DNA of 64,000 bases from Sulfurimonadaceae bacterium (GTDB lineage Bacteria; Campylobacterota; Campylobacteria; Campylobacterales; Sulfurimonadaceae), in NCBI GenBank assembly GCA_041571435.1, contig JBFFUI010000008.1, positions 4,581-68,580 of the forward strand, written 5' to 3'. Positions 8,406 through 24,770 of the stretch are shown one piece after another. Below the pieces are notes generated by a model. The model was given only the letters and a program-made list of their open reading frames with translations. It made no database searches and had not been told where the DNA came from. The position numbers and the translations under genes are program-made. How positions within the stretch are numbered: position 1 is the first letter of the stretch; every line of letters begins with the position of its first letter.

Positions 8406-9296
8406 ATGCGTATATTAATTATTGAAAATGAGATCTATTTGGCACAGAGTATCGCTGCAAAACTGAGCGAACTGGGTCACACTTGCGACATGAGTTCATC
8501 GACGCAAGACGCACTTAAGCGTATCCCTTACGATGTCATTCTCCTTTCAACAAACATCAATGACCAGGACATCTACCCTGTCATCGATGCCTATAAAGAT
8601 GCCGTTGTCATATTGATGGTCTCTTACATCTCCAATGACACTGTCTCGAAGCCGTTAAGTGCGGGTGCCAAAGATTACATCTTGAAGCCGTTTATGATCG
8701 AAGAGCTTATCCGCAAGATCGAACATTTCCAGGACTATGAGCGCCTTAAACGCCAGAATGCCACCTACCAGCGTTATCTAAAGCATGTTTTCAACGGCAT
8801 CAACATTGACGAAAACCTTGAAGATATTGAGGTCCCTATCTTTATCTCCAGCAACTTTCAAAAATACACCGATGCTTTTGCTTTCTCCTACGCTGAGATC
8901 CACAATAAGACTCTCCATTTCGTCTCACTGGCGAACAGCGACGCCTTCAGTGAGATCGAAAAACTTTCTGCAAGCACTTTGATCTACGCCAATGATTTTC
9001 AAGCCGTCAAAAAAGCGGATAAAAAAGCATTTTTTGAGCTGATCGAAGGGCGCGAAGCGATCATTTCAAGTACCGACAGTATCGATGAGGATATGGATTA
9101 CACTGTAGTTGAGATAAAAAGTGACAACAACGTCTTTGAACAGGGCGATATTCTCCCTATCGAAGACTATGTCAAATATATTGTGTTAAATTATCAACAC
9201 AAGTTCCCTGATACTGAGCTCTCCAAGAAGCTAGGGATATCTCGTAAAAGTCTCTGGGAGAAAAGAAAAAAATATGGCATCATCAAGAAAAAATAA
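8406..9296 (+). CDS. atypical response regulator (REC + Fis-type HTH)
   Basis: N-terminal receiver fold (ILIIEN...DYILKPF); C-terminal DTELSKKLGISRKSLWEK HTH. Confidence 0.8.
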   Translation: MRILIIENEIYLAQSIAAKLSELGHTCDMSSSTQDALKRIPYDVILLSTNINDQDIYPVIDAYKDAVVILMVSYISNDTVSKPLSAGAKDYILKPFMIEELIRKIEHFQDYERLKRQNATYQRYLKHVFNGINIDENLEDIEVPIFISSNFQKYTDAFAFSYAEIHNKTLHFVSLANSDAFSEIEKLSASTLIYANDFQAVKKADKKAFFELIEGREAIISSTDSIDEDMDYTVVEIKSDNNVFEQGDILPIEDYVKYIVLNYQHKFPDTELSKKLGISRKSLWEKRKKYGIIKKK

Positions 9297-10464
9297 CACC
9301 CTCTATATTGATCAGGAAGCCCTCTCCGCACTTGCTTTATTAAAAGCGGGTCTGCTCTACCCCGTCACCTCCCTAATGAACAAAAAGCAGACGATGGACG
9401 TCCTGGAGACAGGCACGTACAACAAGAAGATATTCCCTTTCCCTCTCATCCTGGCACCAAGCGGCAAGATAAACGAAGAGGTTCTAGCCGAGGCTGAGAC
9501 CGGTGACAGACTCACCCTTGTCTCTGAAGATGTGGAGGTCGGCCACCTTATCGTCGAAGAGGTCTTTGAGATCAACCCGAAAGAGCGTGTCCGCCAGATC
9601 TACGGAACAGACAACCTTGAACATCCCGGTGTCAAAGCGACCTATTCGAGGCTGGGTAATACGGCCGTTAGCGGTGATTTCGAGATCGACCTTTCGACGA
9701 TAACGCAGCGCAAAAAAGATATCGAAACAGCCAAACAGCGTATAGGCGCACAGCATGTCACCGCTATTATGATGGGGGCCAACCCTCTGCACCGTGCACA
9801 TGAACGACTTATCCGTCAGGCTTTGGATAAAACTGACCTTGTTGTCATCTTTTTACTAAAGCCCTTTAACAGTACCGATCTGCAGTTTGATCTGCGCAGC
9901 GAAACACTGACCTATTTTGTGCAGAACTTTTTACCGACAAACCGCGTTATCGTCGTACCATTGGAGAACAGCTACATCTTTGCCGGCTATAACGAAGTGA
10001 TCATCGATTCTATTGTTGCCAAAAACTTTGGGTGCAATCGCTTGACAATCGGTCAGAACCATGCCGGTGTCGGTATGTACTATGATCAGAATACAAACAA
10101 ATCGATCATTGACAAATTGACAGGACTCGACATTGAAGTCGATATCGCTTCTGAATATGTCTACTGCAATGTCTGCAAGACACTTGTCAGTACCAAAACC
10201 TGCCCGCATGGTCAGCACCACCATATCTCATATCATTCAGACTCTATCCTTGAACTCATCAAACTGGGTCTCTTGCCACCTGCGGTCTTGATGCGAAAAG
10301 AGATCGCAGCCATCATACTGTCACATCTCTTTCCGGATCGTTTTAAAAACCTTGAGAAGCTCTACTACGACATCATGCCGGTAACCGGTCTACTCGAAGA
10401 GCATACCGAGAAAGATTTTTATATAGAGTTGATGAAGCTCTATCAGACCACCTCTCTAACGTAA
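9274..10464 (+). CDS. ATP-sulfurylase (Sat)-like nucleotidyltransferase
   Basis: PUA-like N-terminus, NPLHRAHE, IGQNHAG, Cys cluster CNVC...CPH; several canonical residues differ. Confidence 0.8.
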   Translation: MASSRKNNTLYIDQEALSALALLKAGLLYPVTSLMNKKQTMDVLETGTYNKKIFPFPLILAPSGKINEEVLAEAETGDRLTLVSEDVEVGHLIVEEVFEINPKERVRQIYGTDNLEHPGVKATYSRLGNTAVSGDFEIDLSTITQRKKDIETAKQRIGAQHVTAIMMGANPLHRAHERLIRQALDKTDLVVIFLLKPFNSTDLQFDLRSETLTYFVQNFLPTNRVIVVPLENSYIFAGYNEVIIDSIVAKNFGCNRLTIGQNHAGVGMYYDQNTNKSIIDKLTGLDIEVDIASEYVYCNVCKTLVSTKTCPHGQHHHISYHSDSILELIKLGLLPPAVLMRKEIAAIILSHLFPDRFKNLEKLYYDIMPVTGLLEEHTEKDFYIELMKLYQTTSLT

Positions 10465-10528
10465 TTGCCGTCAAGAGAGCAGAAGCTGATTTTCACATAG
10501 TGAACTGCTTGCACCATAAAGGACAATA

Positions 10529-11044
10529 ATGAATTGGTTTTTTCTCACTGTATTTTACAGCGGTCTTGCACCTAAAGCTCCGGGAACCGTAGGGACCATA
10601 GTCGCACTGCCTATAGGGGTAGTGATCTTGGCCTACTTAGGTCCGCAGACACTTTTTTTAGCGGCATTGCTGTTGACGCTCGCCGGCGTTAAAGCGGTCA
10701 ACAAGTATCAGGAGAGCTCAAATACACACGATGACGGACGTATCGTAATCGATGAGCTGGTCGGAATGTGGTTGGCACTCTCTATAGCGCCGGGTATCTA
10801 TACACCGTTGGACGAACTGCTTGTACTTGAAAACGGTATGCTGATCCAAATCGTTTTAAGTTTTGGCCTATTTCGCTATTTTGACATCAAAAAGCCCTCT
10901 ATCATCGGCCGTATAGACCGTGAAGCACCGGGCGGCTACGGCGTAATGTTCGACGATGTCCTAGCAGGTATCGCAGCAGGTATACTAACGGCTATTATTT
11001 GGCAAGGTATTTTGGTCTCAGGCGTGATCGAGTATCTCAAATAA
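10529..11044 (+). CDS. pgpA: phosphatidylglycerophosphatase A
   Basis: PKAPGTVGT, IVIDELVG, FRYFDIKKP, GVMFDDVLAG. Confidence 0.95.
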   Translation: MNWFFLTVFYSGLAPKAPGTVGTIVALPIGVVILAYLGPQTLFLAALLLTLAGVKAVNKYQESSNTHDDGRIVIDELVGMWLALSIAPGIYTPLDELLVLENGMLIQIVLSFGLFRYFDIKKPSIIGRIDREAPGGYGVMFDDVLAGIAAGILTAIIWQGILVSGVIEYLK

Positions 11045-11081
11045 GCTGTGACGCTGCTTCACCTCTCTTCTTTATAACACT

Positions 11082-12416
11082 TTAGTTGGCCGCGTTTCCG
11101 GCCACGTTGAGCGGATCCCATGTTTTGGAGATCGGCGGGGCATAGCAAAAGTCCATCATCCCAAGCTCTTCCGTCGTCATCTTCGCTTTTATCGCCATAG
11201 CAATGACATCGATACGGAGTGCCGCACCTTTTTTGCCCAGGATCTCGCCCCCTACTATCACTCTGCTCTCTGCTTCATAGACAAGTTTGATGTAGATGTC
11301 TTGTTGATTCTTGTAGAACGCTGACTGATCTTTATCTTTGACAAAAACAGTCTTGCATGCCAGCCCCATCTTGGTGGCATCACTCTCATTGATCCCGGTA
11401 ATCGCTGCTTCCAAATCCATCACTTTAACACAGGCTGAGCCCAATGAGCCTGGGTACCATGCATGACCGCCGGCCATGTTCTCTCCCGCAACACGTCCGA
11501 GTTTGTTCGCACCGGTAGCCAGAGGAATGTAGACATCATCTTTTTTGACAATATGCGGTACAGTGGCACAATCGCCTGCGGCATAGACATCTTTTAGAGT
11601 TGTCTCGGCTCTCCCGTTAATGACAATAGCACCGTTTTCCAAGGTCTTGATACCCGTGTTTAAGACAAACTCCGTATTGGGTTTAAAGCCGGTAGCAATA
11701 ACGACCAAGTCTGTTTCATAATTGTTTTTATCCGTCACGACACGCTGCACTGTTGTCTCACCTTCAAAACCTTTTACACCTTCATTCAAGACCAGTTCAA
11801 CGTCGTGTCCAAGCAACTCTTCATGCATCATATCCGTTATGCGTTCATCAAATATACGGTTGAAGACACGCGGCCCCCTTTGGATCAAACGCACCTTTTT
11901 ACCCAGGTTTTTCATCGCTTCGACCACTTCGATCCCGATAAAACCGCCGCCGATAATAGTGACATCTTTTACCGTATCACTCTGTACAAGCGCTTTGAGT
12001 CTTTTACCGTCATCCAACTTGGTCAAGGTAAAAATATTTTCCAATCCTATATTATCAAAAGGCGGTTTAATGACATTTGCCCCTGTTGCGATCATCAATT
12101 TGTCGTAGTGGTGTGTCGTCACATTTGAACTGCGCAAATCTTTGACCTGCACCGTTTTATCGTCTGCTGATACCGAGAGGACCTGATGTGCTGTCTGTAC
12201 ATCGATACCCGCATCACGCATCTGTTCAACCGATCGCGCCAACATGGTATGTTCATCCTGAAAAAAATCACCTACATAATAGGGAAGACCGCAAGCCCCG
12301 AAAGAGACGATCTCACCCATCTCATAGACTGTTATCTCAGCATCTTTTGCAAATCGTCTCGCTTTTGCCGCTGCACTCATCCCTGCGGCGATACCGCCAA
12401 CAATAATAATTTTCAT
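11082..12416 (-). CDS. CoA-disulfide/persulfide reductase-NADH oxidase family flavoprotein
   Basis: GGIAAGMSAA, SFGACGLPY (single active-site Cys), GGGFIGIE, C-terminal YAPP; no rhodanese fusion. Confidence 0.88.
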   Translation of the reverse strand: MKIIIVGGIAAGMSAAAKARRFAKDAEITVYEMGEIVSFGACGLPYYVGDFFQDEHTMLARSVEQMRDAGIDVQTAHQVLSVSADDKTVQVKDLRSSNVTTHHYDKLMIATGANVIKPPFDNIGLENIFTLTKLDDGKRLKALVQSDTVKDVTIIGGGFIGIEVVEAMKNLGKKVRLIQRGPRVFNRIFDERITDMMHEELLGHDVELVLNEGVKGFEGETTVQRVVTDKNNYETDLVVIATGFKPNTEFVLNTGIKTLENGAIVINGRAETTLKDVYAAGDCATVPHIVKKDDVYIPLATGANKLGRVAGENMAGGHAWYPGSLGSACVKVMDLEAAITGINESDATKMGLACKTVFVKDKDQSAFYKNQQDIYIKLVYEAESRVIVGGEILGKKGAALRIDVIAMAIKAKMTTEELGMMDFCYAPPISKTWDPLNVAGNAAN

Positions 12417-12603: not shown

Positions 12604-12858
12604 TTAGAGATTAAGCTTCCAGAAGTCGTTGAGTTCCGAACGCAAGCGTTCAAGAACCTGTTCACGTGTTTCGGTGTTGTCAAAAGCAAGCATTTTAGCC
12701 AATTCAGATGCACTGAGGCGCTCTGTATAATGCTTTTCGACGTACTTCATCGCTTTTGCATTGAACTTTTTGGCGATCGAAAGTGATAGTTCTTTGTCAA
12801 ATGCGATGGTATCTGGGTGTTCATTGTTGATTAATACTAAATATCCAATAGGTCTCAT
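12604..12858 (-). CDS. hypothetical protein (84 aa)
   Basis: ORF fills the intergenic gap; TGnTAAGAT promoter-like element 7 nt before ATG. Confidence 0.6.
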   Translation of the reverse strand: MRPIGYLVLINNEHPDTIAFDKELSLSIAKKFNAKAMKYVEKHYTERLSASELAKMLAFDNTETREQVLERLRSELNDFWKLNL

Positions 12859-13004
12859 AAACGTAATCTTAGCAAAAAAAAGTGCATTTGGCTAGAGGTA
12901 AAGGAAAATTTGTGCTAATTTTTGCTAATGATGCCAGAAATATGAGACTCAGACATCTATAATTACTTCTAATAATAGCTGTTTGTCTGAAAAAAGGATG
13001 ATGA

Positions 13005-13517
13005 TCAGATCATCATCGGATCAAAAGTCGGCTCGATCTCTTCGTAGTCTGCAACAATCTGGTCAAACATTTTCTGTGTCTTTTTGGCCTTCGCAATCTG
13101 GGCGTCAAAAATCTTTCTCGATGACGGGAACGCGTCAGCTAGTTCCGTATAGATCATTATACGCCCGTTAAGGTGCTTGTTGAATTCTGTAAATGCTTTA
13201 CTGAGAAATTCACGTTTTGTCGTATGACGGAAAAGCGCTTTGAGCATCTTGTCGCGCTCTTTAATAGGGATCGACTCGTCGATGCCGTCAGCAACACGTT
13301 TAAGATCGATACGTGAAAGATAGACACCGCTCTGACTCGGTGCAAGCAGCTTCTCCTGCAGTTCATCTACAAAAGCCGGATACGGCTCTTCATCGACTGC
13401 ATCACCACGGTCCGGGTTCTCTTCAGTGTCACAGCTTCCGTCTTCACTGATCTCACATTTGTCGCGTACAAACTTGTCAAATTCTGCTCTTAGTTCGTCC
13501 ATGTTGCCATTGATCAT
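13005..13517 (-). CDS. hypothetical acidic protein, last gene of molybdoenzyme cluster
   Basis: AGGA SD, 12-nt gap from the upstream gene, host-like codon usage. Confidence 0.8.
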   Translation of the reverse strand: MINGNMDELRAEFDKFVRDKCEISEDGSCDTEENPDRGDAVDEEPYPAFVDELQEKLLAPSQSGVYLSRIDLKRVADGIDESIPIKERDKMLKALFRHTTKREFLSKAFTEFNKHLNGRIMIYTELADAFPSSRKIFDAQIAKAKKTQKMFDQIVADYEEIEPTFDPMMI

Positions 13518-13529
13518 TATTATTTCCTT

Positions 13530-14288
13530 CTAATTATTTTTTATAAAATTGTAAGCGTTTTTTGTCAAACGCTCCAGTTGTGCCTCATAGCCTATATATT
13601 CGACATCGAGTTCATTCGCACGCTGACGAAGTGCAGAGATCTGCTTCGCATTTTTAAGGTCAATACAAATTGGCGGCAGCTTTGCCACCTTTGCCAATGA
13701 GCTGATCGTCGAGGCGTCAATAACAGCGTCATAGTCACTCAGATCGCATGCATCTGTCAAACGGTTGATATCGATCGATACACTCTCATTCATGGCCATC
13801 AATGACTCGACATATTCATGATAATAGAAAAGAGTATGCTCTCTCTGTGTCAATGCTATCGCCTTTGCCAATGCCCCTGCACCGATTACAGCGATCTTTC
13901 TCGCCTGTTTTTCATCAAGCAGTTCAAAAAGAGATTGTATCGCAATAAAATCGCCGATAAGCTTTTTATCTTTCACTAAAACCACATCACATGCGCCGCA
14001 CGCTTTGGAAAGTTCACTTTGAATGTCTACGATCTCAGCGGCATCTTTTTGATACTCGGCGCCGATGAAAGCACCGCTTAACTGAGCATCACGCATGTTG
14101 GAGAGTGTAAAGTAGAAATCGTCTTCGCGAATGTTCATCGGGATCATCATCGCATCATCACCCGCAGCTTTGAAAAGACGGTTTACACTCACGGACAGAC
14201 GGTTTTGCTGCGCCTCTTCGGCAATAAAACCGAACAGTTTGGTCTGACGGCCGATCTGGTTGGATTCGTTCATACTGTCAACACTCAT
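13530..14288 (-). CDS. shikimate dehydrogenase-fold protein, catalytically degenerate
   Basis: TKLFGFIA start, GAC, LIGD and IGAGALAKA motifs align with AroE, but the catalytic Lys and Asp are substituted. Confidence 0.75.
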   Translation of the reverse strand: MSVDSMNESNQIGRQTKLFGFIAEEAQQNRLSVSVNRLFKAAGDDAMMIPMNIREDDFYFTLSNMRDAQLSGAFIGAEYQKDAAEIVDIQSELSKACGACDVVLVKDKKLIGDFIAIQSLFELLDEKQARKIAVIGAGALAKAIALTQREHTLFYYHEYVESLMAMNESVSIDINRLTDACDLSDYDAVIDASTISSLAKVAKLPPICIDLKNAKQISALRQRANELDVEYIGYEAQLERLTKNAYNFIKNN

Positions 14289-14297
14289 ACCATCTCC

Positions 14298-15407
14298 TTA
14301 CATATCATCTGAAATACCCCAAAGCTCTCGTGCCTCTTCTTCTTCACATTGGCACTGATAACACATCTTTGCACCGGCCAATGAGGTAAACAGACGTCCA
14401 CACTCATTGCAGTTCTTTACATCAAACGTGACAAGATTCTGGACTTGCGGCTCAAAAAACTCTTTTATATTATACGCGTTGGAACGTGTCAGAGCATCCG
14501 TTTCGCACACATCATGGCAGACATGGCACTTAATGCATAAAAATGGATCGAAATCGATCTTTGAATTACGGACGTTCGAGGTCAACGCACCCGTCGGACA
14601 GACACGGTAACACATCTGACATGCCGTACACTTTTCCAAGTCAAAAAGTTTTTGTGACGTAAAACTCAGTTCTGTCGCATCAACCACGTGATAGGTCGAC
14701 GGTTTCTCTGCACGTTTCAGAGCGGTAAAGAGCAGTTTACGTCTGTCCGGAATACCTTTCTGTTTTAACTGTGCGATCTTATCGTTTGTGATGGTATGTT
14801 CAACCAGCTCGTCGGTCGCTATCTCAACCTCACGGTCAAACTTCTGTTTTGCCGTTGCCGCATTTTTGAGTGTAAAAGCTCTGAAAAAGTCACGTCGTTC
14901 GCCTTCAGGTACGTCAGTCATCTCCTCAGGCGTATACGCTCTGTTTTCCAGTCTGACAGCAGCACTGCTCTCCATAGCCTCGAGCACATAATTCGCCTCT
15001 TCGGCTGTTGATTCGATCTGCCCTCTGCAGGTGTGGGCGATATCACAGTTCTCACAATGTCCCATATCAAATGTTACGCCATTTTTTAACGAAGCCAGTG
15101 CGATGACATGCTCAACATTCAAAACAGAGATACACGGAACATTTTTGCGGCATGAGATCAGCGACTCTTCGCTTGAAGCGAATTCGAAAAAGAACTCTGT
15201 CAAACTGAAGTCATCTAGCGTTAATGCTTCGGAGGGACAGACACCTGCACATCCGCCGCAAGCAACGCATTTAGAAAAGTTTATCGCTGGTAGCCCGTCA
15301 TTTATAACAATAGCATTGGTCGGACAGATGCGCTCACATTTATCACACTCGCTGAACTTGGCGAGAGAACGGATACAGGCAGACGTATTAAGAGCGATCG
15401 CTGCCAT
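14298..15407 (-). CDS. polyferredoxin (multiple 4Fe-4S motifs)
   Basis: CDKCERICP, CVACGGCAGVCP, CTACQMCYRVCP, CIKCHVCHDVC plus extra Cys groups. Confidence 0.9.
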   Translation of the reverse strand: MAAIALNTSACIRSLAKFSECDKCERICPTNAIVINDGLPAINFSKCVACGGCAGVCPSEALTLDDFSLTEFFFEFASSEESLISCRKNVPCISVLNVEHVIALASLKNGVTFDMGHCENCDIAHTCRGQIESTAEEANYVLEAMESSAAVRLENRAYTPEEMTDVPEGERRDFFRAFTLKNAATAKQKFDREVEIATDELVEHTITNDKIAQLKQKGIPDRRKLLFTALKRAEKPSTYHVVDATELSFTSQKLFDLEKCTACQMCYRVCPTGALTSNVRNSKIDFDPFLCIKCHVCHDVCETDALTRSNAYNIKEFFEPQVQNLVTFDVKNCNECGRLFTSLAGAKMCYQCQCEEEEARELWGISDDM

Positions 15408-16036
15408 TATTCCGTAGCGAGGCTTTCATTGATTAGTTCGTTGTCGGAAAGCATAAACTCAAGCGCCATCTCAGCAGCATCATAATAGAGCGGTGTACGC
15501 GCTTCATACTTCATATTGATCAGGTAGAGTGGTGCCCACTGCAGGAGATGTTTGTTCAAGAACTCGCTTTGCGCTTGCAAAAGGTGTTCAACCGCATTGG
15601 TATCACCCTCTTCCATCGCTTTCATCTGCGCTTCGCACAGATGATGCATAAACTCAAGTTCAACACCGATGTGGTCACTTGAAACAACACGTGCGATCTC
15701 ATAGTCGACGATAAAGTCGTAGGCGCTGTACATGTCTGTTACCGGGTTAGCCCCGCCTGTTTCGATCTTTTGGTCGTCACGCGTGTAAAATGTCTCATAA
15801 GGGACAAGGTGCAGGACTGAAAGGTTCACAAAGTCTGGATTCAAATGTTCGCCCAAGAGCGCACTGTTTTGAAGAGTACTTAGTGGTTCCCACTTCTTTA
15901 GGTTTGGAAAAAACTCTAAGATCTGATCGTCATTTTTGATCGTCGTCAGCATCTCGTCATCGAGCTCTTGCATAAGTATTCTTGAAAGTAGTGCATATAT
16001 ATTACTGCGTGCTTGTGTCTGTTCCATGCGTATCAA
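15407..16036 (-). CDS. TorD/DmsD family molybdoenzyme chaperone
   Basis: PYETFY, DHIGVELEFMHHL, FLNKHLLQW motifs; start may be ATG 16027. Confidence 0.92.
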   Translation of the reverse strand: MIRMEQTQARSNIYALLSRILMQELDDEMLTTIKNDDQILEFFPNLKKWEPLSTLQNSALLGEHLNPDFVNLSVLHLVPYETFYTRDDQKIETGGANPVTDMYSAYDFIVDYEIARVVSSDHIGVELEFMHHLCEAQMKAMEEGDTNAVEHLLQAQSEFLNKHLLQWAPLYLINMKYEARTPLYYDAAEMALEFMLSDNELINESLATE

Positions 16037-16068
16037 TATTCCTGAAAAAAATTATGGGGGATTTTAAC

Positions 16069-16091
16069 CAAGTAGGCTGAAAGCCTACTTG
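16069..16091. other. perfect 10-bp stem-loop between catalytic subunit and chaperone genes
   Basis: caagtaggct-gaa-agcctacttg. Confidence 0.75.
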
Positions 16092-16101
16092 AAAAAAGAA
16101 G

Positions 16102-19100
16102 TTAGTCTTTGATCTCAACCGCGTAGGCTTTCTCTGAAAGAGCAACCCAAGGACGCTTGATATGACGCGGACGACGCCATTTGTTCGCTGTATTAAGAGG
16201 ACGAGTAAGCTCATCTCTCCACGCCTGGTATGTTTTGAAGTTATTTTCATAGTTGACATAGATGTCACCGATGTTGTCACCCGGTTGAGCAGGTTCCAAA
16301 ATAACTTTCTGGTGCCAACAGTGCATACCCGAGATCGGATCCGGGTGCGTCGGTGCCACAGCATTTTGCCATGAACCAGAAAGACCGTCCCACCAGATGT
16401 TGTCACTGTCTTTGTTATAGGCAGCAAAACGCTTAGTATGGAAAGGTTTAATGCCTTCTACATAACGCATAAGACCTTTTTTACCGTCCATGACCATCTC
16501 GGCAGTCGGAACACCGAAGCTGTTCATACCTGCAGTACCGTCGTAATCTTCGATCATGATCTCTTGACCGATGCGACCTGCAGCTGCAGGGCTGTCTGCC
16601 ATAAACTTAGGATCGTTCATGTTACGCGGTACCGGCTGACCGTCAACTTTACCGTCTGTTACACCGTTAGGAATCGTTACAGAGTTTTTAAGTTTCCAGC
16701 GTCCACCATGGTGTGAACATGCCAGTGTACCAGGAAGAACACCTTCAGTCGGTACGGCCATCGCTACGAAGTAACCGCTTTCAAGACCTGAAACCGTGTC
16801 AACGATACGGACACGGATCGCATCACCACGCTTGAAGCCTTGACGCTTCGCATCCGGAGTTGAGATCCAGATCGGGTCATGGTTTTGCGAGATCTCCATA
16901 AGGTGCTTAGAGTTCGCAGAACGCGTGTGAATGTTGTATGGAAGACGGAATACTGTGTTCAATGCATACGAGTTCTCTTCAGTCATATACATATGGTTAA
17001 CGTGAGAGACAATGTGAACCATCTCCTCTTTCTCTTTCTCGTTACGAGGGTAGAAAGGAATCGCATACTCCGGCCATTTCCACTCGTCAGATGCGAACCA
17101 CTCTGAGAAGAAGTCAAGTTTTTTGTCAAGTGTCGCAAAACCTTCCATCTTAACACCGTCGATCTCGATACCAATAGGTTTTTTACCATCATCGTATTTC
17201 CATGCGTCGCTGCCATGTGCTTTTGTTGTCATGACACCCGTACGCTTATCGATCTCGACATGATGTTTATTATATTTGTGACCGTGTGCGATGTAGTTTT
17301 CACCATCTTCTTTGATCACACGCTCTTGTGCCGAATAGATATTGTTCTCTTCCATCCATGCACCGTGATCTCTCATGTACTCGTATACTGGGTACTCAGA
17401 GTCTTTGTAACGCGGGTCTGAAGTCGCTGTAGACTTCAGGTTCGGCAAGTTGTCACCGAACGCAGCATCGTACCATTCAGAGATCGTAACCGGTTTGCCT
17501 GGGTTCTTTTTAGACTCCCACATTTTCTTGATACCAAGAGAGCCATCCGGATCGATGTAGTTAACACCCATGTCGAACCAGAACTCATTCTCTTCCCAAA
17601 CTTCACCAAGACCAGCTTTGATGTGTGCTTCAAGTGTTGCACGGTTAGGGTTTTTAGGTTTCCAACCTGCTTTCTCAAGCGCAACACGCATAACCGGCTG
17701 ACGGAATGATGTCCAACGTGCCGGCATCGTCGCTTCAGAGTGCTGATCGTGACGCTCGCCGGCAAGACCAACTGGAAGTACGTAATCAACATGCCAGTTT
17801 GTTTCAGACCATACAGGAGAAAGGTTAAAGGTAAGTTCCATTTTGGACTCGTCTTTAAGCACTTCCAACCAACGGAAGCCGTCTGGGTTGATCCATACCG
17901 GGTTGTACATACGTGGGATCCAGACAGCCAGTTTCTGTGGAACGTTGAGTCCTTTTTTGATCCATTTGTCCTGCCACTCAGTATCGGTTAGAAGGTGTGG
18001 CAGAAGGTATGACATCTCATACGTAGAGAGAGGCCATTCAGGCGGCCAAGAAAGTTCATTCCAGACATCGACTTTAGGAACGTTTGCACCGCCCTTACCT
18101 TGACCGACAGTCGCAGCACCACCCTTACCGGCAACAGAAATAACGTGCCAGTGGTGGAAGAATGTACCACCTTTAGGACCGATCGCACCGCGTAGACCAA
18201 GTGCAAGGTAACCTGTACGACCTGAGACCCAACCACCACGGTTACCCGCAGCTGTTGCACGCCAGAAGTATGACGCGATAGAGGTGTCAGCCCAGAGGAA
18301 CATGTCGTATAGTTTCTCTAGTTTGTACGCCGGTACATGCGACTCTTTAACTGCATAGTCAAGTGTATATGGTGCATAAATCTCTTTTAGCATTTCCATG
18401 TACGACTCAAAACTGCCATCTTTCGGAAGTGCAGAGATATACCCTTTTTTAACCATGAAGTTCAGATAATCTTTGTTATCCATCATCACTTCCCAGTTAA
18501 ACCACTTCTTGACAAATGCTTTATTGACCTTGTCTTCTTGAAGCATACGCTGTACAAGATAGAGGTAGATTGTCGGTTCTGTACCTGGCCATGCTGCGAT
18601 CCAAAGGTCTGCCATACCGGCAGAGTTAGACATACGCGGATCCATAACAACAAGTTTTGCACCTTTTTTACGTGCGTCAGCAATGTGACCTGCAGCCTGC
18701 TGGAAGTAGTGACCCGCATCGGCTGCGTGTGACGAGTTAAGGAAAACAAGTTTCGCGTTTGCCCAGTCCGGAGACGTACGGTCATCATTTGCCCACTGGA
18801 TAGTCGGCGTACGACCACCTGAAGAACAGATGTTAGTGTGCGAGTTGAATGCATCCGTGTTCAGTGTTTCCCAGAATTTTCCGGTGAAACCGTTCTCGTT
18901 CGGACGACCGACGTGGAACATAACTGATTTTTTAGAAAGCTCATCCCCAACACGTAGAGTGTCACCCATCTTCTTACCGATGGTTGTCATCGCTTCATCC
19001 CAAGTCGTACGGATCCATTTACCTTCACCGCGCTTAGAGCCCGGAGCACGTTTGATCGGGAATGCTAGACGATCCGGATCATACATTTGAGACTGTGTCG

Positions 19101-19521
19101 CATAACCTTTAGCACAGTTACGGCCACGAGAACCCGGGTGAAGCGGGTTACCCATATATTTTTTAACGGTAAAGGTCTTCTTATCGATCCATGCTGTCAG
19201 ACCACAAGAGGCCTCACAGTTTGAACAGGCTGTCGGAACGATCGCGAAATCGTTGACATAGATACCATCTGGGTTCTCTTCGCTCTGTACACCGTGACGG
19301 CCGATACCACCACGTTTCCAGTCTTGGCCATCAAGCTCTTTAAAGTCTTCCCACTGATCCAACGGCGGATAGAATGATAGTGAATCAGGCGTGTTCGTAA
19401 ATTTGCTTTCACTGACTGATTCTGCAATGGCGTCAGTTGTGAAAACGCCCTTTGCAATTGCAGCGCCGGCAACAGTAAATGCCGCGCCTTTTAAAAATGT
19501 TCTTCTACTTTCTAAATACAT
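16102..19521 (-). CDS. Tat-exported DMSO-reductase-family molybdoenzyme catalytic subunit (PsrA/TtrA-like)
   Basis: SRRTFLK Tat signal, CSNCEASC...C FS0 motif, HTNIC putative Cys Mo ligand, C-terminal HTRSAN MGD-binding domain. Confidence 0.93.
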   Translation of the reverse strand: MYLESRRTFLKGAAFTVAGAAIAKGVFTTDAIAESVSESKFTNTPDSLSFYPPLDQWEDFKELDGQDWKRGGIGRHGVQSEENPDGIYVNDFAIVPTACSNCEASCGLTAWIDKKTFTVKKYMGNPLHPGSRGRNCAKGYATQSQMYDPDRLAFPIKRAPGSKRGEGKWIRTTWDEAMTTIGKKMGDTLRVGDELSKKSVMFHVGRPNENGFTGKFWETLNTDAFNSHTNICSSGGRTPTIQWANDDRTSPDWANAKLVFLNSSHAADAGHYFQQAAGHIADARKKGAKLVVMDPRMSNSAGMADLWIAAWPGTEPTIYLYLVQRMLQEDKVNKAFVKKWFNWEVMMDNKDYLNFMVKKGYISALPKDGSFESYMEMLKEIYAPYTLDYAVKESHVPAYKLEKLYDMFLWADTSIASYFWRATAAGNRGGWVSGRTGYLALGLRGAIGPKGGTFFHHWHVISVAGKGGAATVGQGKGGANVPKVDVWNELSWPPEWPLSTYEMSYLLPHLLTDTEWQDKWIKKGLNVPQKLAVWIPRMYNPVWINPDGFRWLEVLKDESKMELTFNLSPVWSETNWHVDYVLPVGLAGERHDQHSEATMPARWTSFRQPVMRVALEKAGWKPKNPNRATLEAHIKAGLGEVWEENEFWFDMGVNYIDPDGSLGIKKMWESKKNPGKPVTISEWYDAAFGDNLPNLKSTATSDPRYKDSEYPVYEYMRDHGAWMEENNIYSAQERVIKEDGENYIAHGHKYNKHHVEIDKRTGVMTTKAHGSDAWKYDDGKKPIGIEIDGVKMEGFATLDKKLDFFSEWFASDEWKWPEYAIPFYPRNEKEKEEMVHIVSHVNHMYMTEENSYALNTVFRLPYNIHTRSANSKHLMEISQNHDPIWISTPDAKRQGFKRGDAIRVRIVDTVSGLESGYFVAMAVPTEGVLPGTLACSHHGGRWKLKNSVTIPNGVTDGKVDGQPVPRNMNDPKFMADSPAAAGRIGQEIMIEDYDGTAGMNSFGVPTAEMVMDGKKGLMRYVEGIKPFHTKRFAAYNKDSDNIWWDGLSGSWQNAVAPTHPDPISGMHCWHQKVILEPAQPGDNIGDIYVNYENNFKTYQAWRDELTRPLNTANKWRRPRHIKRPWVALSEKAYAVEIKD

Positions 19522-19533
19522 TGATATCCTCTC

Positions 19534-20442
19534 TTAACTCATAGGTAGTAGTTGTGGAATCATCAACCATACATGTTTGACAATCCATAGACCAGCTAAC
19601 GCAAGGATAGCTGCTAATTTAAGAATGTTTTGGTTTTTGTTGACAATACTTAAGACCACTAGTACAAATGGAATGATGTAAGCAGTAACTTGACCGATCC
19701 AGAACATTGCCTGATACTCACCACCATGTTTGATGTACTCAAGTACAGCTGCAACCTCTTCAGCTTTCATCGGTCCGAAAACCAACTCCGCCATATACAT
19801 AATGAATGCCGCAAGTGCACTGAACCCGAGGATGATGCTCAGGTCACGTTTCGCTTCTGATGACAGCTTGTTCATGAACGTGTCCATCAAAAGAACCGTA
19901 GCTGAACCCGAAAGCGTCGCTGCAAGTACCATCTGGGCCGACTCTGTCGGCATCTGCCATAGTTCACGTGCCGTTGCCTGTGCCATAAGACCTGCCGTAT
20001 AAAGTGTTACAGGAATTGCAAGTACAGTTACCCATAGCAGTGTCTTGTCAAAGGCTGCATCGTCTTTTTTGATGAACGAAAGATAGGCAAGCAGGAACAA
20101 TAGAGCGACAAACGCCGTCGCCATCCAAGCACCCACCGTAATCGCCGATGTAACATGCGGATAGAAGAAAATGTGCCACATTCTAAACGGCTGATGAAGG
20201 TCCGCCAGAGTGAACAACAGGAACAGGTGAATAAATACAATTGATACGACTGTAATCGGGAAACGGTAGCCGGCTGATTCATTCGGGTACTTTTTCAACA
20301 GGTAGAACAGCATAAAGATAACACCTGTACCAATACTTTTAGCCCACATATTCATCGTAACCAGCCAAGGCCATACAATACCAGGAAGACCAACGTCCAA
20401 TGTCACAACTGCATTAGTTGCTGCGATAGTTTCGTGTACCAT
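19534..20442 (-). CDS. NrfD/PsrC family membrane anchor (quinol-interacting)
   Basis: About 8 hydrophobic helices; DLHQPFRMW and SAITVGAW motifs. Confidence 0.92.
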   Translation of the reverse strand: MVHETIAATNAVVTLDVGLPGIVWPWLVTMNMWAKSIGTGVIFMLFYLLKKYPNESAGYRFPITVVSIVFIHLFLLFTLADLHQPFRMWHIFFYPHVTSAITVGAWMATAFVALLFLLAYLSFIKKDDAAFDKTLLWVTVLAIPVTLYTAGLMAQATARELWQMPTESAQMVLAATLSGSATVLLMDTFMNKLSSEAKRDLSIILGFSALAAFIMYMAELVFGPMKAEEVAAVLEYIKHGGEYQAMFWIGQVTAYIIPFVLVVLSIVNKNQNILKLAAILALAGLWIVKHVWLMIPQLLPMS

Positions 20443-21080
20443 TAGTGACCTCCTAGCGGCATTTTTGAAGTAATCTTGTTAAACAACGAGTGTCCTTCTA
20501 CCCTGTGTGACGCAAGTGGGTTCAATGTAACGTTTCCGCCACCGACATAGTAGTGGTGCGGGTTCGTACCTTTTTCAGGTTTACGAACCTGAACATCACC
20601 TTGGTGCTGCATGATATACTTGGAGATGTTTGAAGTAGGGTCTTCAATATCACCGAAGATATTCGCTTCGACCGGACATGCGACAACACATGCAGGCATC
20701 ATCGAAGAGGCAATACGGTGTGCACAGTATGTACATTTGTCGGCCGTCTGTGTTTCCGGATCGATATAGATCGCGCCATATGGACAAGCCATAACACAAC
20801 CCGCACAACCGATACAACGTTCTTTGTCAATATTGACAATACCGTTTTCGATATAGTGAAGTGCACTGACCGGACAAATACGTTCACACGGTGCATTTTC
20901 ACAGTGGTTACAACGAAGTGGTGTAAATGTACGTTTCGTTTCCGGGAACGTACCTACATCAACATACTTAACACGAAGACGCCATGTAGAAAGAGGAACT
21001 TCATTCTCAACCTTACATGCGATCTCACATCCCTTACAACCCATACACAGGTGTAAGTCAACGAGGAAACCTAATTTCAT
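20442..21080 (-). CDS. four-cluster 4Fe-4S electron transfer subunit (PsrB/DmsB-like)
   Basis: CMGCKGCEIAC, CNHCENAPCERICP, CIGCAGCVMACP, KCTYC...PACVVACP. Confidence 0.95.
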   Translation of the reverse strand: MKLGFLVDLHLCMGCKGCEIACKVENEVPLSTWRLRVKYVDVGTFPETKRTFTPLRCNHCENAPCERICPVSALHYIENGIVNIDKERCIGCAGCVMACPYGAIYIDPETQTADKCTYCAHRIASSMMPACVVACPVEANIFGDIEDPTSNISKYIMQHQGDVQVRKPEKGTNPHHYYVGGGNVTLNPLASHRVEGHSLFNKITSKMPLGGH

Positions 21081-21112
21081 CCATTCTCCTTGAGCCAGAT
21101 ATTAAAAGTAAT

Positions 21113-21129
21113 AGCAATCATTATGCCAA
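21113..21129 (-). promoter_or_regulatory. sigma54 (-24/-12) promoter of the molybdoenzyme operon
   Basis: Minus strand TTGGCAT-AATGA-TTGCT with correct GG/GC spacing, 33 nt before the start codon and its AAGGAG SD. Confidence 0.75.
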
Positions 21130-21383: not shown

Positions 21384-21875
21384 CTACTCCTCCTCATCGC
21401 CCTCTTCTTCGATATAGTCGTCAGGATTTGCTAGACAGTCAAGACCGTCCGCATGTTTTTCAACGCCAGCACCGTATTCGTATGTCAGCTCGCCGCCATC
21501 TTTGCCTTGTTGCAATATCATAGCTGATGCGCCTAACAGTAAGACAACTGCCAATGCCTCAAGCCAGAACTTCTTCATCTGGCAACCTGCAAAATTAACC
21601 ACTGCGATGACACCCATCGCGATGGCAAGGTAAAGACCAAGTGTCTTATGTTCAACCAGCTCTTCTTGGCCTTCTGTACTCAAGAGAGGATAGACGTCCG
21701 GTCCAACCTGTGAACCGGTATACCATGCCGCGATCACACCAAGTGCCGCTAAGACCAGAAAACGTGCAGAGATCTTTGACATCCCTTCACTGCGTGTGAT
21801 CATATAGCTTAGACCAAGAACGAGGGCCACTAGGGGAAGAACGATTGCAAAATGCGCTGCTGCTGGATGTAACAT
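21384..21875 (-). CDS. DUF2231-like membrane protein
   Basis: LHPAAAHFAIVL, EHKTLG, GGELTYEYG; four TM helices; start at ATG 21875 after AGGAG. Confidence 0.75.
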   Translation of the reverse strand: MLHPAAAHFAIVLPLVALVLGLSYMITRSEGMSKISARFLVLAALGVIAAWYTGSQVGPDVYPLLSTEGQEELVEHKTLGLYLAIAMGVIAVVNFAGCQMKKFWLEALAVVLLLGASAMILQQGKDGGELTYEYGAGVEKHADGLDCLANPDDYIEEEGDEEE

Positions 21876-21974
21876 AGTACATACTCCTGTATTTGTATTT
21901 GAGAGTATCATACACAAAACTTATAGCAATGTAAATAGAAATCGTTCAAAAGTAAAAGAGTTAGAAGATTTTGT

Positions 21975-23416: not shown

Positions 23417-24634
23417 CTATTTTGACTCAACGTTGTTGGCTTTTTGCATCGCTTTGAACGCCTTTAATGCATGTCTGTCAAGCCGAAATTTGTATCGCCA
23501 GGTGATCAGCCTCTTTAATACATACCCTAAAAACCCGGAGACTTTGATGGTATCAAAAAGCACGACGGCTGCATTATAACCGCCCAAGGCGACCATCATG
23601 CCTTGCAACCCAAAAGATATATGTTGCGGACGTTCACCTTTCAACTGCGCTTTGATATTTTGGACCACGACACCTGCCGACTGTTCTGCAGCATTTGCCG
23701 TAGCCGGAATGACATGACCTCCCGCATCGACCAGGGCCGCAACATCCCCGATGGCGTAGACATATTTATGGCAGGTCACCTGCAGCGTCTGATGCACTTC
23801 TACTTGCCCCTTCGCATTGAGCGTACAGCCCAATGACTTGGCCAAGGAGGACGCTTTGACACCGCCTGCAAAGATCATAAAGTCGAAATCAACACGGCCA
23901 CCGTTGTTGAGGATGACCGCACTCTCTTTCACTTCGGCAATACGCGTGTTGTAAAGGACCTTCACGTCAAGCGCTTCCAAACGTTGCTTCGCTTTTTGCT
24001 GAAGATAGGGGTTCGTACCGTCAAGAACTTTATCCCGAGAGGCAATAAGATAGATCTGAATACCCTCACACATTATTCGGTTGTCTTGAATAAACGCTTT
24101 GGCGTAGTTACCCATCTCAGCAGCGATCTCGACACCGCTCAATCCCGCCCCGCCGATGACGACATTAAAAGCTCTGCTGAACGGGTCATCTTCACTCTGC
24201 ATACGTGCATACAGCTGCTTCTCAAACTGCTGTTTAAATTCAAACGCGCGTTTCAGGGTCTTGACCCCATGAGAGTACTCTCTCAGCCCGGGTATCGAAG
24301 CCGGAAAGTGGGTACGGCTTCCGGTTGCAAGGACAAGATAGTCAAAGGGTAACGATTCTTCCCCGCATAACACCACTTTTCGATTGAGATCGATCTCTTT
24401 TATAATCGCTTTTTTATAACTGGCATTTTTATAGTGATCGCACAATGCGACGAGATCGACGGTGACATCCGTCAGTGTGACTTTGTTGGCAACGAGAGCA
24501 TAGGCTTCGGTCTGAAGATAGTGATAAGGGTTCTGGTCGATCAGGAGAATTTCAAGCTCTTTGACACTGCTAAGACCCTGCATCGTACGTACCCCACCGT
24601 AACCGCCGCCGATAATTATGAGTTTTTTCTTCAT
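23417..24634 (-). CDS. type II NADH:quinone oxidoreductase family flavoprotein
   Basis: GGGYGG, GAGLSGVE, YAIGD, GMMVALG motifs; start taken at ATG 24634. Confidence 0.85.
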   Translation of the reverse strand: MKKKLIIIGGGYGGVRTMQGLSSVKELEILLIDQNPYHYLQTEAYALVANKVTLTDVTVDLVALCDHYKNASYKKAIIKEIDLNRKVVLCGEESLPFDYLVLATGSRTHFPASIPGLREYSHGVKTLKRAFEFKQQFEKQLYARMQSEDDPFSRAFNVVIGGAGLSGVEIAAEMGNYAKAFIQDNRIMCEGIQIYLIASRDKVLDGTNPYLQQKAKQRLEALDVKVLYNTRIAEVKESAVILNNGGRVDFDFMIFAGGVKASSLAKSLGCTLNAKGQVEVHQTLQVTCHKYVYAIGDVAALVDAGGHVIPATANAAEQSAGVVVQNIKAQLKGERPQHISFGLQGMMVALGGYNAAVVLFDTIKVSGFLGYVLKRLITWRYKFRLDRHALKAFKAMQKANNVESK

Positions 24635-24770
24635 CTTGGACTGTGCCTCAATAGTATGAAAATTCATAATAACGTATTTTCTGCTGATTTCAAAGTTTCA
24701 GAATCGCTAAGTGGTGATTTACAGAGATTATTCAGGGAAGGGTAGCGGAGGAAAAGTGTCTATCGAGTCA

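Follow-up and report, generated by a model that had tools for sequence, protein, structure and literature searches.

The closest described counterpart of the locus considered here is a gene cluster of Nitrosophilus labii HRV44 that carries the labels psrA1B1CD, together with a chaperone gene psrE, and that is assigned to a polysulfide reductase on homology and expression only (PMC11539149). For Sulfurimonas sp. NW10, PMC10045233 cites Wang et al. (2021) for a periplasmic polysulfide reductase encoded by psrA1B1CDE, and the genome paper of S. hydrogeniphila makes no mention of psr. A survey of the NarJ subfamily of maturation chaperones mentions no fused or obligate partner domain (PMC4464133). 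Here we examine seven genes, labelled B, C, A, D, F, G and H, in a 64,000-nt stretch of DNA from a Sulfurimonadaceae bacterium (the window, to which coordinates refer unless another contig or locus is named; numbered L handles denote related loci and numbered G handles sampled genomes). The locus probably consists of two linked units: B-C-A, encoding a periplasm-facing molybdoenzyme, and D-F-G-H, a cytoplasmic maturation cassette for its catalytic subunit A (Table 1). A molybdoenzyme of this type with a chaperone and a ferredoxin is known; what is new is a pair of undescribed helper genes, G and H, of which H is the more interesting. The case starts from direct observations of gene content, folds, synteny, co-occurrence, gene fusions and the detection of size- and position-matched proteins in a proteome. 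The bacteria that carry the locus are prominent at sulfidic redox interfaces, yet the enzyme has been named only generically or as “Psr” by homology.

Conservation of the D-F-G-H cassette

A has 486 relatives in species-representative genomes, and the best 80 of these are 76-95% identical to it and come nearly all from Sulfurimonas, Sulfuricurvum or unclassified Sulfurimonadaceae/Campylobacterales. In each of these 80 closest loci the position directly after A holds either all four cassette genes or none of them: D, F, G and H follow A in about 28 complete loci, and do so as well in the more distant L101 (AP022847.1). Genomes without the four genes after A have exactly one strong H elsewhere (22/22), and every unlinked copy inspected (6/6) is an intact D-F-G-H operon with H last, located next to pgpA and the ATP sulfurylase gene sat and with no molybdenum subunit nearby. 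Rearrangement at the A-D junction therefore parts two units and leaves D-F-G-H whole in all of these lineages.

The association holds across the class. Among 251 sampled Campylobacteria genomes, orthologues of A (60-85% identity) occur in 30, representing 14 genera and six families (coded groups), and H occurs in 29. Every genome with H has A, none of the 221 genomes without A has H, and in the sole A-only genome the contig ends inside F. In 24 of the 29 genomes with H, a comparison of coordinates places it 0.7-3.4 kb downstream of A. Fisher's test gives p = 4e-37 by genome and 5e-11 by genus, values in which shared ancestry overstates independence. The cassette also comes apart internally. 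Some Sulfurimonas-type genomes have minimal clusters of the form B-C-A-D-H (L115, L116) and keep their F-G pair at the pgpA-sat locus, as in G063 and G271, where D-H lies next to B-C-A; the cassette therefore splits into D+H and F+G. In the L120/G204 lineage the order is B-C-A-D-F-H, and G is found nowhere in the genome.

Products of a similar cluster have been detected in cells. The supplementary proteome of N. labii HRV44 contains eight consecutive proteins, WP_187647113 to WP_187647120, all of them detected, which were mapped to the cluster genes by order and length, not by sequence. Hypothetical proteins of 150 and 120 aa match H and G, a 4Fe-4S protein of 355 aa matches F, a TorD family protein of 201 aa matches D, a molybdopterin oxidoreductase of 1102 aa matches A, an NrfD/PsrC protein of 307 aa matches C and a 4Fe-4S protein of 214 aa matches B; a 113-aa cytochrome c has no match in the window. 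On this mapping, peptides and spectra of the enzyme are abundant. The open reading frames (ORFs) of L119, whose A is 63% identical to that of the window, have the N. labii lengths for H, F, D, A and C and differ for the G-like gene (131 vs 120 aa), B (222 aa, 214 of them aligned, vs 214) and the cytochrome (118 vs 113 aa). The loci that match Nitrosophilus carry small extra genes between A and D (L119 5212-5568; L122 6716-7790), and one extra ORF there, on the opposite strand, matches by size and position the c-type cytochrome detected in N. labii.

The preliminary description of this DNA had regarded the last two genes as accessory factors tied to the molybdoenzyme and named in no described Psr, Ttr or Sre system, and had pointed to neighbourhood conservation across Campylobacterota as one way to find out. 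This view is borne out: D-F-G-H is syntenic, H accompanies A in 29 of the 30 A genomes, proteins of matching size and position appear in the proteome, and, as described below, H is found fused to TorD.

The helper genes H, F and G

Domains were called with Pfam and NCBIfam profiles, with the NCBIfam equivalog cut-offs deciding membership. D is a TorD/NarJ-type chaperone, scoring 66.8 bits against PF02613 (gathering cut-off 22.2) and encoded 65-74 nt downstream of A. Its orthologues align from the ATG at 16027 (residue 4), which is the probable true start. H matches no Pfam or NCBIfam profile and is called “hypothetical” in every source; the same holds for the family at large, at least 811 clusters that are all “hypothetical” and none of which has a Pfam domain. 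An AlphaFold model of H is all-helical with a predicted local distance difference test (pLDDT) score of 80, and a comparison of the model with the PDB returned no fold match (best E 1.3).

The company that H keeps is more telling. A profile search of 1.8 billion representative sequences recovered 114 proteins that share a core corresponding to residues ~50-157. All seven of the full-length long matches (299-372 aa) consist of an N-terminal TorD/NarJ domain (PF02613) followed by the H domain. Where fusion loci have enough upstream sequence, three of five (L095, L096, L134) directly follow a gene for an A-like subunit, which shares 31-44% identity with the family-specific C-terminal region of A. 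Another fusion gene (L129 1-2475) is flanked by genes for a tandem rhodanese and a SulP-family permease and does not follow a molybdenum subunit, and these neighbours hint at a sulfur-compound context for the fusion family. Scanning metagenomes for TorD-H fusions gave nothing with the single protein P0232, and an alignment of seven sequences was too divergent; a four-sequence alignment recovered eight short loci.

In both contexts examined, the gene for a short stand-alone relative of H (115-130 aa) immediately precedes one for an ApbC/Mrp-type iron-sulfur carrier. One of these pairs (L100) adjoins a type II dimethyl sulfoxide (DMSO) reductase cluster that ends in a TorD gene followed by a full-length paralogue of F. 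This cluster (AP022847.1, 612-11431) encodes a 958-aa A, an iron-sulfur subunit, an EB_dh/cytochrome c subunit, TorD, the F paralogue and a rhodanese, and the divergent cassette that faces it has three genes, for a 189-aa protein with faint LRV matches, the H-like protein of 123 aa and the ApbC/Mrp carrier. Second H-like and F-like copies occur in G113, G204, G062, G054 and G093, the second F paralogues of G113 and G204 among them.

Could H be the factor that brings iron-sulfur clusters to a precursor held by its chaperone? From its fusions and neighbours, H appears to be a new partner of the TorD chaperone. A fuller version, which we put forward only tentatively, would have H as an unrecognised domain family acting as an obligate co-chaperone of a subset of TorD-type proteins and coupling the chaperone-bound, unfolded precursor to iron-sulfur carriers (ApbC/Mrp or F), with the F-G pair forming a second new accessory unit that has an AroE fold without its catalytic residues.

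F contains two 2x[4Fe-4S] domains, a central cysteine cluster and a C-terminal CxxC-x13-CxxC knuckle, the features of a cytoplasmic polyferredoxin; no NCBIfam model reaches its cut-off. G is a weak match to shikimate dehydrogenase profiles (46.7 bits vs a cut-off of 252; TIGR00507, 40.9 vs 200.2). Its structural model (pLDDT 92.9) has the two-domain fold of shikimate dehydrogenase, with AroE as the top PDB match (E 1e-16, template modelling score 0.65-0.78, 13-20% identity). Alignment with the genome's own AroE shows NVTVPHK replaced by FIGAEYQ (catalytic Lys to Gln), NTD by FIA and HSRS by QQNR, so that the fold is that of AroE but the catalytic Lys-Asp pair and the substrate-binding Ser are gone and the hidden Markov model scores stay below cut-off. 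That AroE is encoded by a canonical gene at C11:26984-27760, which is why G was rejected as the housekeeping aroE. G has an invariant motif of its own, IPMNIRxDD. In this genome it retains the glycine-rich loop GAGxxA; in Sulfuricurvum and several vent lineages it is reduced to an N-domain of 120-160 aa. The Rossmann domain is missing in Sulfuricurvum, L117, L101, L119, L122 and L124, leaving the N-domain as the one part conserved across lineages. Since many lineages dispense with the Rossmann domain, G is unlikely to act as a dehydrogenase.

The pathway that would account for these genes runs as follows. D would hold the precursor of A, binding its twin-arginine translocation (Tat) leader as TorD-family proteins do. 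H would serve as the obligate partner or co-chaperone of D and as an adaptor through which ApbC/Mrp-type carriers and F deliver iron-sulfur clusters to the precursor while the chaperone holds it. F, in a NapF-like role, and G would form a second and more dispensable pair that assists or proofreads. A, predicted to be a Tat-exported subunit with a molybdenum or tungsten bis-pyranopterin guanine dinucleotide cofactor (Mo/W-bisPGD), a cysteine ligand and an FS0 cluster, and B, a putative four-cluster ferredoxin, would then exit through Tat, dock on the NrfD-type anchor C and exchange electrons with the quinone pool. D-F-G-H would probably be expressed from its own promoter.

H would thereby be a candidate for a missing step of biogenesis, the bringing of iron-sulfur clusters to a chaperone-held precursor. 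If so, a co-chaperone H would offer a first entry point to the question of how Tat-exported molybdoenzymes receive their FS0 cluster ahead of the molybdenum cofactor. The co-inherited four-gene cassette would mark such systems in genomes better than the catalytic subunit does by itself, and heterologous expression of B-C-A without D and H, perhaps also without F and G, may fail.

Several points weigh against this interpretation. The role given to H is guilt by association, and its predicted fold has no solved relative. We infer every biochemical role assigned to F, G and H, as we do the substrate and the two-promoter architecture. G, as far as its distribution tells, cannot be essential in general, because it is absent from one lineage and truncated in many. 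The counts of A-H co-occurrence are phylogenetically non-independent (13-14 genera, 5-6 families), and the N. labii proteins are tied to the cluster by position and size. The “Psr” label of the related clusters stems from homology and transcript or protein abundance only, and A scores far below the NCBIfam cut-offs. With these points counted, an arrangement of an enzyme unit and a dedicated maturation cassette still seems the probable one.

Other roles for the helper genes fare worse. G and H could be regulatory, for example sensing a sulfur compound or redox state and gating chaperone release or transcription. The conserved part of G is indeed the ligand-binding N-domain of the AroE fold, with its invariant motif, H has no catalytic-looking motif, and no dedicated regulator adjoins the cluster in the window. 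However, Pfam and NCBIfam profiles find no DNA-binding or signalling domain in G or H, the H domain is fused to a chaperone in other bacteria and adjoins iron-sulfur carriers, and the regulators that do lie next to the cluster elsewhere are ordinary two-component systems, all of which makes a regulatory role rather unlikely.

A cytoplasmic redox chain is quite unlikely. F, G and H would here pass electrons from NAD(P)H through G, as an active dehydrogenase, to F, so that pre-A would have its molybdenum cofactor or its clusters reductively activated before it is exported. The GAGxxA loop and the confident two-domain model of G in this genome fit such a chain, as do the multi-cluster ferredoxin nature of F and the co-segregation of F and G. 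It is hard to reconcile with the replacement of the catalytic Lys and Asp and the shikimate-binding Ser, with the loss of the whole Rossmann domain from the six groups listed above, and with the absence of G from G204. Finally, G and H might have nothing to do with the enzyme, G being a paralogue of aroE that serves aromatic metabolism and H a small protein placed there at random. Neither has an annotated function, which fits this idea, but it is already refuted by the co-occurrence (29 of 30 genomes with A, 0 of 221 without) and the TorD-H fusions, beside which stand the F-G-H order kept in all six inspected unlinked copies and the canonical aroE elsewhere in the genome.

The enzyme, its candidate promoters and its surroundings

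A has the domains PF04879, PF00384 and PF01568 and a Tat signal, MYLESRRTFLKG (motif SRRTFLKG). Its FS0 cysteines are C99, C102, C106 and C136, and Cys232 (HTNICSSGG) occupies the alignment position of Cys173, the molybdenum ligand in Thermus PsrA; residues 88-341 are the only part that resembles any solved structure (PDB match 2vpw). B, which is 72-98% identical across related loci, has no signal peptide of its own and is presumably exported together with A. C is an NrfD protein (PF03916, 54.9 bits) with no cysteine and about seven hydrophobic segments in a crude hydropathy scan. MopB domains, an FS0 cysteine motif, an aligned cysteine as molybdenum ligand, a four-cluster B, an NrfD anchor C and the Tat signal on A are together the features of complex iron-sulfur molybdoenzymes, and by these sequence features B-C-A is a Tat-exported, quinol-linked, three-subunit member of that group within the DMSO reductase superfamily. 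The layout of A, B and C with TorD had earlier been read in this way, with a ttrBCA-like order, and domains, cysteines and gene order agree with that reading.

The substrate is a different matter. A misses every NCBIfam equivalog cut-off (PhsA, 124 vs 694 bits; TtrA, 50 vs 1750), scores too low to assign a substrate from sequence; orthologues of A, among them those of N. labii HRV44, Sulfurimonas sp. ST-25 and HSL1-2 and S. microaerophilic, bear only generic public names (“molybdopterin-dependent oxidoreductase”). Family placement and ecology make an inorganic sulfur compound the best guess. Relative to its AP022847.1 orthologue (72% identity overall), A has an insertion of ~35-45 residues at about residues 955-1000, and in the class-wide search A orthologues of 60-76% identity matched over residues 1-952 only.

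Table 1. Genes and sequence features at the B-C-A-D-F-G-H locus, in window coordinates
Feature	Position	Strand	Description
B	20442-21080	-	212 aa; Fer4_11, 16 Cys; four-cluster [4Fe-4S] electron-transfer subunit
C	19534-20442	-	302 aa; NrfD/PsrC-type quinol-interacting anchor, integral to the membrane; TAATG overlap with B
A	16102-19521	-	1139 aa; Molybdop_Fe4S4, Molybdopterin and Molydop_binding domains; Tat motif
D	15407-16036	-	209 aa; TorD/NarJ-family redox-enzyme maturation chaperone (Nitrate_red_del/TorD)
F	14298-15407	-	369 aa; polyferredoxin, 26 Cys
G	13530-14288	-	252 aa; weak shikimate dehydrogenase match; AroE fold
H	13005-13517	-	170 aa; acidic, all-helical; no family
TGGCATAATGATTGCT	21113-21128	-	exact sigma-54 -24/-12 look-alike; TG-n-CATAAT extended -10 at 21128-21120
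9-bp stem-loop	16069-16091	-	follows the stop codon of A directly; candidate terminator or RNA-processing element of B-C-A
TAAAAT (conserved TA(A/C)AAT -10 box)	16061-16066	-	~35-45 nt upstream of D; candidate promoter of D-F-G-H
Terminator-like hairpin	12997-13017	-	spans the stop codon of H, then CTTTTTT; end of the transcription unit
DUF2231 gene	21384-21917	-	177 aa; membrane protein, between hisD and B
84-aa ORF	12604-12858	-	no family; just downstream of H

The seven ORFs are co-oriented and lie head to tail in the order B-C-A-D-F-G-H, with intergenic gaps of -1, 12, 65, -1, 9 and 12 nt, both -1 junctions (B-C and D-F) being TAATG stop/start overlaps; the ORF calls and junction letters thus agree with the spacing and the two overlaps first reported. 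Do they form one operon? The short gaps speak for the seven-gene operon of the preliminary description. That it is a single unit is doubtful, since D-F-G-H stands alone in many genomes and a hairpin and a -10 box lie in the A-D spacer. Across 19 species the hairpin positions pair in 84.8% of cells, vs 70.2% in shuffled alignments (0 of 500 as high) and 21-44% when the pairing is slid, and six of the nine pairs show compensatory changes. RNAalifold predicts no structure in the spacer, the hairpin having been spotted by eye and then supported by these pair counts. Its loop, TTT(C/T)AG, is invariant. The TA(A/C)AAT box precedes D at the same distance whether D follows A or, as in six genomes, D-F-G-H lies apart from B-C-A. 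The covariation of the hairpin and the conservation of the box thus suggest two transcription units, with B-C-A ending at the hairpin, D-F-G-H having its own promoter and read-through possible. The longer string TTCAG...TAAAAT is also kept upstream of D where the cassette is unlinked, and may bind a regulator in addition to serving as a promoter. Separate transcription had been named as something that would refute the link between the last genes and the enzyme; this is too strict, as a functional link seen through co-occurrence would survive it.

Upstream of B the same description saw a sigma-54 promoter heading the operon, and this is the claim that fails. The consensus, TGGCATAATGATTGCT, is present letter for letter, with exact spacing, 33 nt upstream of the B ATG. 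Transcription by sigma-54 RNA polymerase from TGGCAT-N5-TTGCT is nevertheless very improbable. The genome, estimated to be 100% complete, has no rpoN by PF04552 or TIGR02395, to which control genomes responded, and no sigma-54 activator was found in it, the best AAA+ domain match (27 bits) lying in Clp/Lon-sized ORFs. A complete motif occurs in one of the 68 upstream regions of orthologous loci; the three next-closest relatives have a degraded form, and the others lack it. In L068 the -24 GG is disrupted; three close relatives retain the -12 GC. By chance, 0.16 occurrences are expected per window, and at least one turned up in 15 of 100 shuffles. The presence of rpoN in 7 of the 16 genomes of the genus that were searched lends the promoter a little credit, but its distribution is patchy, and the whole sigma-54 system of rpoN and activators seems to have been lost repeatedly within the genus. 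The same letters also form an extended -10 box, TG-n-CATAAT, at the place where TATAAA(T) stands in other species, about 40 nt from the B ATG. Because rpoN and activators are lacking, the motif is so rarely intact, chance can produce it and its letters double as an extended -10, TGGCATAATGATTGCT is most likely a chance look-alike of a sigma-54 promoter and is better read as the extended -10 of a sigma-70-type promoter for B-C-A. A false lead is thereby removed: a sigma-54-controlled respiratory operon would be unusual for Campylobacterota.

Around the seven genes, the cluster adjoins pgpA and the ATP sulfurylase gene, as in many relatives; in the regions 9274-12416 and 23417-24667 these two are found along with two flanking genes for pyridine-nucleotide-disulfide oxidoreductases (444 and 416 aa). 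A 430-aa gene kept next to the cluster on the upstream side was considered as a cluster regulator and rejected, since it is hisD. About one in four of the 80 related loci has the DUF2231 gene at the same position, at 43-75% identity; in the window it has its own -10-like box, with a terminator-like hairpin upstream of it. Only the three closest relatives (L001, L003, L023) share the 84-aa ORF, at 93-96% identity.

Comparison with known systems

B-C-A appears to belong to the Psr/Phs/Ttr-like part of the DMSO reductase superfamily and falls inside neither of the two families compared with it here, Ttr and Psr/Phs. With TtrBCA of Salmonella it shares the order B-C-A and a catalytic subunit that is unusually long, Tat-exported and of the Cys active-site type, and TtrB and TtrC are the NCBIfam families that B and C match best. 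The scores of all three subunits are, however, below the equivalog cut-offs (TtrB 207 vs 416 bits, TtrC 26 vs 314, TtrA as given above), no TtrSR lies beside the cluster, and only the gene order matches. To our knowledge no D-F-G-H cassette accompanies Ttr. PsrABC and PhsABC (Thermus 2vpw, Wolinella, Salmonella) offer the best solved relative of the first 340 residues of A, an FS0 motif and a Cys173 molybdenum ligand that align, and an NrfD anchor without haem. The differences are the order (BCA, not ABC) and a catalytic subunit that is ~375 residues longer, matches PsrA over the 88-341 segment alone and stays far below the PhsA cut-off.

The cluster of N. labii is much closer, with the same gene order, a Tat-exported molybdenum enzyme, an NrfD anchor, a TorD chaperone and a ferredoxin. 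The psrA1B1CDE cluster of Sulfurimonas sp. NW10 is a putative counterpart by its gene labels. Both sets of labels cover five genes, and neither names G- or H-like genes.

The helper genes can each be set beside a familiar protein. F resembles NapF, an iron-sulfur maturation helper of NapA, as a cytoplasmic multi-cluster ferredoxin encoded in a similar place, but its score falls short of the NapF equivalog (TIGR00402, 40.5 vs a cut-off of 102.2). G shares with AroE the two-domain fold of its model, and differs in the loss of the catalytic Lys and Asp and the substrate-binding Ser, in a Rossmann domain that can be dispensed with and in being embedded in a molybdoenzyme cassette. D is, like TorD, DmsD and NarJ, a bona fide PF02613 member encoded beside its enzyme; the difference is that the chaperone here is always accompanied by H, as a separate gene or fused to it.

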